Shown in pieces: positions 27,001-30,000 of a DNA stretch of 62,020 nucleotides. The stretch is from Escherichia phage ArgO145. Position numbers: made by a program. Position 1 is the stretch's first letter. Every line of letters starts with the position of its first letter. The stretch lies in sequence record NC_049918.1. One strand, 5' to 3'.

Positions 27001-30000
27001 GGGAAAGAATACTGGACCAGTCGCTGGAATCTGCAACCGTTACTGCAAAGTGCTCAGTTGACAGGAATGACTGTCACAATCAAATCCAGTACCTGTGAAT
27101 CAGGCTCCGGATTTGCTGAAGTGCAGTTTAATAATGACTGAGGCATAACCTGATTCGTGGTATGTGGGTAACAAGTGTAATCTGTGTCACAATTCAGTCA
27201 GTTGACAGTTGCCTGTCAGACTGAGCATTTGTTAAAAAAATTTCGCATGGTGAATCCCCCTGTGTGGAGGGGCGACTGGTGAAAAATCCTTGCTTGTGAT
27301 TCATTATCGACACGGGTTCGGTGGTACCAGGCCGAACTCACCGGGAGGCACCCGGCACCATGCAGTATACAGAGATTAGGCATATACCAAGGCCTCTCAT
27401 AGCAGGGGCCTTTTTACATGTAAAAAAGCCCGAGTGGGTTCGGGCAATTGCATGAGATACTCGTTTTAATAATCGAAATCATTTTAACCAGGATTCATAA
27501 GGCTGCGCAACTGCGCGGCCTTTTTCGTATTTCGGGCTGTAGTCTTCCTTCTGCCATTGTCCTGTAACTTCCGGACTTCAGCCCGCTCCTCATCTGACTC
27601 ACACATTATCCCGACCGGGAGGATTCATGGCATTTAAACACTATGACGTGGTCAGGGCGGCGTCGCCGTCAGACCTTGCGGAACGAATAACTCAAAAACT
27701 GAAGGAAGGGTGGCAGCCTTATGGTAGTGCGCTGATTTCGACAGCTGGTTATGGTGCGGAGTTCATCCAGCCAGTTGTGAGTGAGGGGAGCATCTCATCA
27801 CCAGAGGAGCCAGGCAACCGTCCGACGACCTCAGCGCCTTCTGTTGCGCCAGAATATTACTATGTGATCGCGCTTGCTGGTCAGTCCAATGGTATGTCAT
27901 ACGGTGAGGGACTGCCATTACCGGATACATTCGACAGTCCTGATCCACGAATTAAACAGTTAGCGCGTCGCAGTACGGTGACACCGGGAGGTGCCGCCTG
28001 TAAGTATAACGACATCATTCCGGCGGACCATTGTCTGCATGATGTGCAGGACATGAGCCGCCTTAACCATCCGAAAGCGGACCTGTCAAAGGGGCAGTAC
28101 GGAACCGTGGGGCAGGGGCTGCATATCGCCAAAAAATTGCTGCCGTTTATACCGGCGAATGCGGGCATTCTGCTGGTTCCGTGCTGTCGTGGTGGTTCAG
28201 CGTTCACCACCGGAGCCGATGGCACATACAGTGACGCGAGTGGTGCCTCGGAGAATTCAACCCGCTGGGGTGTGGACAAGCCGCTGTATAAGGACCTTAT
28301 CGGTCGAACAAAAGCAGCACTGAAGAAGAACCCGAAAAATGTGCTGTTTGCCGTGGTGTGGATGCAGGGGGAATTTGATTTTGACGGCACGCCCGGAAAT
28401 CACGCAGCACAGTTTGGTGCGCTGGTTGATAAATTCCGTGCAGACCTGACGGATATGGCAGGTCAGTGCGTTGGTGGCTCTGCTGGCGGTGTTCCCTGGA
28501 TCTGTGGAGATACGACGTATTTCTGGAAGCAGAAGAACGAATCCTCGTACCAGACGGTGTACGGCAGCTACAAAAACAAAACGGAAAAGAATATCCATTT
28601 CGTACCGTTCATGACCGATGAGAACGGGGTGAATGTGCCGACGAACAAACCGGAAGAAGACCCGGACATTCCGGGTATCGGGTATTACGGTTCGAAATGG
28701 CGTGACAGCTCAGCCACCTGGACGTCACAGGACAGGGCGAGCCATTTCAGTTCATGGGCTCGCCGCGGGATTATTTCCGACCGTCTGGCAACGGCGATTT
28801 TGCGCCATGCGGGAAGAGTGGCGCTAAACGCGGGGGCATCATCGACAGTATCAGAGGTGCGCCCGTCATCGCCTTCCGGTGCAGAAGCCACAGGCGTCAC
28901 AACACTGCTCTCTTACCTTGTCAGCGAGTCAGAGGGAAGCCTGAAAGTACAGGGATGGTCAGCCAGTGGCGGCAGGGCAGAAGTGGTCAGCGATGCGGAG
29001 GGAACCGGAGGTAAGGCAGTGAAGCTGACCAAGGAAGCCGGTAAAAGCAGCTGGGTGCTGGAGTACGCCGCGGGCAACGGTGCGGCTCTGTTACAGAAAG
29101 GGGGGCAGATTCGCTGCCGCTTTAAGGTTTCGGGAGCGCTGGCTGCGAACCAGTATGTTATGGCGTTTTACTGGCCGGTATCTTCACTGCCACAGGGCGT
29201 TGCCCTGACCGGAGTCGGGGGGAATAACCTGCTGGCAGCGTTCTACATCCAGACAGATGCAAAAGACCTGAATGTGATGTACCACAATGCGAAAGTGGCG
29301 ACAAACAACCTGAAACTGGGAAGCTTTGGCGCATTTGATAACGAATGGCATACGCTGGCTTTCCGCTTTGCCGGGAATAACAGCCTTCAGGTGACGCCGG
29401 TTATTGATGGTCAGGATGGCACACCGTTCACGCTGACGCAGTCACCGGTCAGTGCCTTTGCGGCGGATAAACTGCATGTGACAGACATTACCAGAGGTGC
29501 GACTTACCCGGTGCTGATTGACAGCATTGCGGTGGAAGTGAACAGCACAGACACTGCGGCATGATAAAAAAACCGCCAGCGACAGGAATGGACGCTGGCG
29601 GTGGTGATACCTATGGAGAAAAAATAAAGGAACGATACTTTCGTACTCTGGTTTTTAATGAAAACAGTTCTTATTGTCAACAATAACGGAAAGAAATTAT
29701 GACATTTCTGAACCAGTTAATGCTGTACTTCTGTACGGTGGTCTGTGTGCTGTATCTCCTTTCGGGTGGGTACAGGGCCATGCGTGACTTCTGGCGCAGA
29801 CAGATTGACAAAAGGGCCGCTGAGAAAATCAGCGCCAGTCAGTCAGCCGGAAGCAAACCCGAAGAGCCGCTCATTTAGCGGCAACTTTCTTAATCACACC
29901 TTTCGACGAGAAAATCCCATGTCAGAAATTACATCCCTGGTCACTGCAGAGGCAGTGAAGGACGTCCTGCGCTCTGAAGAAGTCCGGAGCGCACTGAAAC

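Follow-up and report, generated by a model that had tools for sequence, protein, structure and literature searches.

Convergent sRNA genes EcOnc27/STnc100 and AsxR, with an additional terminator-like hairpin, between stx2B and a nanS-p-type esterase gene in Escherichia phage ArgO145

The sRNA dyad downstream of stx2AB

The window analyzed here is the whole 62,020-nt stretch of Escherichia phage ArgO145 (NC_049918.1), and the feature under study is the 485-bp gap (27142-27626) between stx2B and a gene encoding a nanS-p-type esterase. We identify this interval, with high confidence, as the known dyad of convergent Hfq-binding small RNA (sRNA) genes, EcOnc27/STnc100 on the plus strand and AsxR on the minus strand, here located after stx2AB; it also carries two plus-strand hairpins, hairpin 1 (27389-27415) and hairpin 2 (27499-27534), that are predicted to form tandem intrinsic terminators. 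The arrangement of two published sRNA genes facing each other, with an additional terminator-like hairpin, is a real finding and one that is already known. The interval can be equated with the published locus because the Rfam matches, the published distance of 282 bp, the sequence of a published Northern probe and the identity to Sakai Sp5 all agree. No difference from Sakai Sp5 is seen between 27142 and ~27587, 123 phage records match the interval with at least 99% identity, and 573 complete E. coli genomes contain a copy that spans 80% or more of it. A gap that appears empty in the matched records, being either unannotated or assigned to a "hypothetical protein", contains a functional RNA gene on each strand.

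The 485-nt interval folds at -167.8 kcal/mol as compared to -144.1 +/- 6.2 kcal/mol for 100 dinucleotide shuffles (z = -3.8), none of which was as stable. The initial annotation had described a structured region at this position, which is borne out by these values; most of that region is STnc100/EcOnc27. A terminator scan returned 11 sites in 5 kb, against an expectation of 4.9 +/- 2.4, and three of the four strongest sites lie inside the interval. The two T-run hairpins named in the initial annotation are real, lie within 2-3 bases of where it had placed them, and correspond to hairpins 1 and 2. The scan recovered hairpin 2 on the plus strand and the AsxR terminator (27445-27428) on the minus strand; this minus-strand T-run hairpin had been missed, as had a stem formed by 27533-27545 with 27573-27585.

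The plus-strand gene, EcOnc27 (27187-27421), encodes an Hfq-binding sRNA of the STnc100 family and is equated in a review with sRNA103 of strain EDL933; the name sRNA103 is also used in strain 86-24, and EcOnc27 is the Sakai name. The Rfam STnc100 model (RF02076) matches 27216-27421 over its entire length (positions 1-206 of 206) at 207.7 bits, far above its gathering score of 47, and only four positions (two pairs) are flagged as non-standard pairs. STnc100 is reported in the literature to lie 75 nt downstream of the stx2 operon, which here corresponds to 27216. The EcOnc27 unit folds with a z-score of -3.9 and possesses a 5' stem-loop at ~27189-27232. At its 3' end, hairpin 1 consists of a 9-bp stem (27389-27397 with 27404-27412) and a U-run extending to 27415, with a folding free energy (dG) of -13.5 kcal/mol and a z-score of -2.5; it corresponds to the last helix in the Rfam alignment of STnc100, and is predicted to be the intrinsic terminator of STnc100/EcOnc27. 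The probe used for EcOnc27 in Northern blots by Tree et al. (2014) is the reverse complement of 27360-27394.

The EcOnc27 species detected with this probe measure ~235 and ~247 nt, and the size given for AsxR is 54 nt (Tree et al. 2014, Table S2; PMC4104026). Both EcOnc27 sizes are larger than that of the 206-nt Rfam model, and the E. coli RNA is therefore likely to be extended at its 5' end (27175/27187-27215). Two plus-strand -10-like elements, TGgTATGTG (27158-27166) and TGTAAT (27176-27181), are found in the stx2-specific 3' flank (27142-27186) and may serve as promoters for the ~247-nt and ~235-nt species; the start sites expected from them (~27175 and 27187) agree with the Northern sizes. 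In other loci an AT-rich -10-like motif (TGTTAAAT, TGCTATGT) occupies the same alignment position as TGTAAT. The hexamer TTGACA at 27202-27207 was considered as a -35 element of STnc100 and rejected, as no -10 element is found at an appropriate distance from it and a deletion removes it from the Stx1 copy.

Two sites in the 5' part of EcOnc27 distinguish the window from the stx2c phage 2851: the window has the stx2a-type alleles (T at 27230, TTT at 27241-27243), in contrast to C and TT in phage 2851. Both sites match, within one base of numbering, the +90 single-nucleotide polymorphism and the +103 T-deletion reported as predictive of haemolytic uraemic syndrome in PMC12711010, where variants in this part of EcOnc27 rank near the top of the genomic predictors. 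STnc100 has also been suggested to regulate stxB via an 11-nt complementarity (PMC12370729). The corresponding helix, 27219-27230 with 27048-27059 (12 bp including G.U pairs), was equaled in length in 72 of 300 shuffles, and is therefore not beyond chance. Adjoining this complementarity is an 11-nt direct repeat, TCAGTTGACAG, which occurs at 27054-27064 in stxB and at 27198-27208 in the EcOnc27 5' stem-loop.

The minus-strand gene, AsxR (EcOnc02), encodes an Hfq-dependent anti-sRNA of 53-54 nt (27475/27476-27423) and is present as a single copy within the window. The Rfam AsxR model (RF02703) matches 27475-27423 over all 53 of its positions without a single deviation from the consensus, at 88.1 bits (gathering score, 63); a scan of the whole window gave this match and that to STnc100 again. 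Tree et al. (2014; PMC4104026) described EcOnc02/AsxR as lying "282 bp 3' and antisense to stx2AB"; the position found here matches exactly, since 27141 + 282 = 27423. The initial annotation had named this interval as the candidate location of AsxR, and the model match and the 282-bp distance uphold that location; both of the hairpins it had flagged lie outside AsxR, and the strand, which it had not given, is the minus strand. Identity was judged against the Rfam consensus and not against the supplement of Tree et al., whose sequences carry homopolymer errors in the machine-read text. The Sakai coordinates in their Table S2 do not fit NC_002695.2 and probably refer to an earlier version of the record, and the mapping was made by sequence and by the 282-bp distance.

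AsxR belongs to an anti-sRNA family of 51-60-nt RNAs that share a conserved ~42-nt 3' region with a Rho-independent terminator and differ in their 5' 14-18 nt. Its own terminator stem spans 27445-27428, with the U-run reaching 27423. STnc100 ends at 27421 and AsxR at 27423, such that the U-tails of the two convergent RNAs abut as a palindrome (GGGCCTTTTTACA / TGTAAAAAAGCCC). The AsxR promoter is probably located at 27481-27510, with a -10 element TAAAAT (27486-27481) and a -35-like element TTGCGCA (27510-27504) separated by a 17-18-nt spacer; this assignment was made by reading the sequence relative to the 5' end mapped by rapid amplification of cDNA ends (RACE; Tree et al. 2014), and the pattern falls below the threshold of the promoter scanner. 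For comparison, 92 loci were collected from IMG/VR by searching for exact matches to the 3' region of the anti-sRNA, and the set was supplemented with Sakai, one Stx1a phage and one contig of an Escherichia sp.; these collapse to 40 distinct full-length variants and to 19 distinct variants of the dyad-esterase spacer. The -10 region (27481-27491) is invariant in the 19 distinct variants.

The AsxR RNA is expressed as a primary transcript, binds Hfq and is destabilized without it, as demonstrated on the identical Sakai sequence by crosslinking and analysis of cDNA (CRAC), Northern blotting and RNA ligase-mediated RACE (PMC4104026). In the same work the 5' end of AsxR was found to pair with the terminator loop of FnrS, lowering FnrS and derepressing chuS, as supported by compensatory mutations. 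Overexpression of EcOnc27/sRNA103 is reported to raise fimZ and espA transcripts, probably by an indirect route (Tree et al. 2014; Gruber and Sperandio 2015, both as relayed in reviews).

Hairpin 2 and the esterase leader

Hairpin 2 (27499-27534, plus strand) belongs to neither sRNA. Its stem pairs 27499-27508 with 27513-27522 (10 bp, of which 7 are G-C) around a 4-nt loop and is followed by UUUUUCGUAUUU. The hairpin has a dG of -18.3 and a z-score of -4.7, with none of 200 shuffles as stable, and was detected both by the terminator scan and by these folding statistics as an intrinsic-terminator-like element overlapping the -35 element of AsxR. It is retained in all 19 distinct variants, in combination with any of the three anti-sRNA 5' types described below. 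Across these variants, 188 of 190 stem positions (98.9%) are paired in the plus-strand RNA as compared to 164 of 190 in the minus-strand RNA, counts that are suggestive rather than strong because the sequences compared are closely related. All substitutions at paired positions change G-C to G-U, the U.G pair 27504/27517 is invariant, and six of the ten pairs never vary; hairpin 2 pairs better as plus-strand RNA because of these G-C to G-U changes and the invariant U.G pair. It would be well placed as a backstop that keeps transcription which is not antiterminated out of the esterase and lysis genes.

A second function must be weighed, namely that hairpin 2 acts at the level of DNA, as a component of the AsxR promoter (a palindromic operator for a transcription factor, or simply the -35 and UP-element region), and not as a terminator. 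Counted from the AsxR start, the hairpin occupies -24 to -47, a stretch that includes the -35-like TTGCGCA. On the AsxR strand its T-tract reads as an A-tract at -46 to -50, and the hairpin accompanies the anti-sRNA promoter in all variants. A 2026 preprint has described terminator palindromes that can double as promoter elements or transcription-factor sites, in same-strand arrangements. However, the T.G pair 27504/27517 and the G-U pairs that replace G-C form only in the plus-strand RNA and break the palindrome in DNA, and a GC-rich 10-bp stem with a 4-nt loop directly followed by U5 is a textbook intrinsic terminator. An exclusive role as a promoter element is therefore considered rather unlikely; the two roles are compatible and could coexist.

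Two further assignments for hairpin 2 were rejected. A plus-strand sRNA antisense to AsxR and ending at hairpin 2 would need a plus-strand promoter in 27422-27498, and none was found there by the scanner or by inspection. A same-strand promoter coupled to the terminator and driving nanS-p, following the model of a 2026 Grainger-laboratory preprint, is not apparent, as the sequences after the T-tract (GTATTT, GTTTTG or GAATTG, depending on the variant) are not -10-like and show no conservation of such an element.

Immediately downstream, an inverted repeat forms a covarying plus-strand stem of 12-13 bp in the leader of the esterase gene (27533-27545 with 27573-27585). Three of its pairs show changes on both sides (e.g., TAGT/ACTA as compared to CGGT/ACCG), and 93.5% of its positions are paired, versus 28-52% when the partner columns are slid; pairing is again more complete in the plus strand (231 of 247) than in the minus strand (201 of 247). 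No description of hairpin 2 or of the leader stem was found in the searchable literature. The overall picture leaves current understanding unchanged, and only two minor features, the backstop hairpin lying over the AsxR promoter and the covarying leader stem, are possibly new. As a tentative proposal that falls short of being probable, 27499-27585 may represent an undescribed, conserved plus-strand leader module of prophage nanS-p genes, in which a backstop terminator is fused to an anti-sRNA promoter, read-through transcription and AsxR initiation would interfere with each other, and the leader would set esterase expression in lysogens.

Related loci and alternative readings of the interval

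Homology of the module with Stx1 and non-stx copies begins near 27187. The left neighbors of the module are unrelated to each other (stx2, stx1, tRNA genes, other terminators), whereas the right neighbor is always the esterase start codon, and every related locus continues into ATGGCATTTAAACA; the dyad thus travels with the esterase gene and not with stx. Across 94 loci the 3' part of the anti-sRNA is constant and three 5' types occur, which are the AsxR type of the window, the EcOnc03 type and a third type not matched to a named sRNA; the promoter and hairpin 2 are common to all three. In the stx2c phage 2851 (positions 1501-2363 of the locus), an STnc100-like RNA has a different 3' half and terminator, AsxR and hairpin 2 are absent, and an unrelated spacer of ~860 bp precedes an esterase-like gene. 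A contig scan with the esterase protein, aimed at widening the comparison beyond Escherichia, found only seven loci, and the module is present in only two of these (L097 and L101), so that the covariation statistics rest on closely related prophages. The L101 contig, of 888 bp, is filed as Xanthomonas pisi DSM 18956; the first 80 residues of its esterase are 99% identical and its upstream spacer equals that of Sakai Sp5, and the contig probably entered the assembly as contamination from E. coli or a phage.

Several points weigh against the identification of the interval as the sRNA dyad with tandem terminators. The promoter scanner found no plus-strand promoter for EcOnc27, and the 5' end of the Rfam match (27216) lies 29-41 nt from that implied by the Northern sizes (~27175-27187). 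The best duplex computed between AsxR (nt 1-18) and FnrS (nt 94-113; sequence checked by RF01796) is weak at -8.5 kcal/mol, a value reached by 104 of 1,000 shuffles, so the pairing of these RNAs is taken from the compensatory mutations of Tree et al. (2014); FnrS would not be established as a target by sequence alone. The conservation of hairpin 2 could be due in part to the AsxR promoter that it overlaps, and its role as a terminator is a prediction. What is said here on transcription, Hfq binding and targets comes from publications on sequence that is identical to that of the window or nearly so.

In an alternative reading, the interval would be simply the 3' untranslated region and terminator region of the stx2AB operon, and the plus-strand sRNA a processed or terminated tail of the stx mRNA. 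The scanner found no consensus plus-strand promoter upstream of 27216, and the Northern sizes put the 5' end only 34-46 nt past the stxB stop codon, which would fit processing. However, the STnc100-like module also follows unrelated upstream neighbors (stx1, tRNA genes, other terminators) and so does not depend on stx, the -10-like element upstream of the module is conserved in position, and EcOnc27 and other STnc100 copies have been detected without induction, when stx2 is transcribed at a low level. AsxR, moreover, is on the opposite strand in any case. This origin for the plus-strand RNA is very unlikely.

Still less credible is a set of small proteins, even though hypothetical proteins are annotated under the match in GenBank PV189404 and HG792103 (two or three in some phage records) and the EDL933 STnc100 copy at 1353605, tentatively taken as this locus by its coordinates, has moderate ribosome coverage (ribosome coverage value, RCV, of 1.51), for none of the six open reading frames (ORFs) of 32-55 aa in the interval has a Pfam match, each is intact in only 3-8 of the 40 module variants, with insertions and deletions shifting the frame and lengths that are often not multiples of three in the others, and the RNA covariance models fit at full length. 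The interval is accordingly regarded as non-coding, in agreement with the initial annotation, which had seen no convincing ORF in 27142-27626.

Late-region setting and comparison with known systems

The dyad lies in the late region of a Stx2 prophage, with Q, tRNA genes and stx upstream and the esterase downstream. On the plus strand, a Q-like ORF (24635-25117) is followed by three tRNA genes (25559-25807), stx2A (25901-26860), stx2B (26872-27141) and, after the interval, the 645-aa nanS-p-type esterase gene (27627-29564), which contains the Pfam domains DUF1737, SASA and DUF6645 and is preceded by a ribosome-binding site, GGGAGG, at 27616-27621. The three tRNA genes 5' of stxA are annotated as ileZ, argN and argO in Sakai Sp5. 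Directly 3' of the Q-like ORF is a plus-strand tR'-like terminator hairpin (25163-25182; AACCCGC...GCGGGTT followed by T7), where tR' would be expected and where the StxS sRNA would have its 3' end; the Rfam scan matched no family at 25163-25182. Another terminator-like hairpin follows the tRNA genes at 25823-25842 on the plus strand. Directly after the esterase stop codon is an Esr41-like match at 29564-29641 on the minus strand, which is weak and sub-threshold (28 bits against a gathering score of 102); PasA and Esr41-type sRNAs occupy that place in other prophages. Elsewhere in the window, the C4 antisense RNA and isrK pair (RF01695, RF01394) occurs in two copies, at 4059-4241 and 15762-15949, both on the minus strand, above gathering scores and spaced by ~11.7 kb, which suggests a duplicated module of the P1/P7 c4 type or the Gifsy isrK type within the prophage.

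The following scheme is proposed for transcription across the interval. EcOnc27 would be transcribed from ~27175-27187 to 27421 on the plus strand, ending at hairpin 1, and AsxR from 27475/27476 to 27423 on the minus strand, ending at its own hairpin (27445-27428). Hairpins 1 and 2 would act as tandem intrinsic terminators that, in lysogens, prevent transcription begun at the stx or sRNA promoters from extending into nanS-p and the lysis genes. After induction, Q-modified RNA polymerase from pR' would read through both. In many lambdoid prophages the dyad is flanked by the late promoter region on one side and the lysis genes on the other, and a review has described stxAB as "bookended" by StxS on the 5' side and the AsxR/EcOnc27 dyad on the 3' side. 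The scheme fits the Q/pR' model of late transcription in Stx phages (PMC8065619, PMC12078605) as well as the moron concept of an insertion with its own promoter and terminator. The suggestion in the initial annotation that the stx2 transcript may end before the esterase gene unless antiterminated is likewise consistent with that model and with two conserved plus-strand terminator-like hairpins. The dyad links the Stx2 phage to host haem acquisition, with AsxR acting on FnrS and through it on chuS, and may also link it to the adhesion genes fimZ and espA.

As in phage morons and in terminators that are read through by Q-modified polymerase past pR', GC-rich plus-strand hairpins with U-runs are located here between an inserted block (stx and the sRNAs) and the lysis genes, within a region that Q-modified polymerase transcribes. 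They differ from those systems in that hairpin 2 overlaps a promoter of the opposite strand, and in that termination and Q-dependent read-through at hairpins 1 and 2 are predicted. The plus-strand RNA resembles STnc100/EcOnc27/sRNA103 in its full-length model match, its position in a prophage late region, its proximity to a sialate esterase gene and its match to the published probe, and differs in that the Northern sizes are larger than the 206-nt Rfam model; STnc100 is in turn related to PasD of enteropathogenic E. coli (Zhu et al. 2026, preprint). The minus-strand RNA cannot be distinguished from AsxR of Sp5/933W, with which it shares an identical sequence, position, antisense orientation, terminator and convergent partner, and it is judged on its sequence to be the same gene in another Stx2a-type phage. 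It resembles AgvB (EcOnc01) and EcOnc03, paralogous anti-sRNAs of other lambdoid prophages, in the ~42-nt 3' region, the promoter, the upstream hairpin 2 and the layout of a dyad followed by an esterase, but differs from them in the variable 5' 14-18 nt that form the seed. The AgvB model accordingly scores 40.9 bits at AsxR, below its gathering score of 56, and the targets also differ, with AgvB acting on GcvB and AsxR on FnrS.

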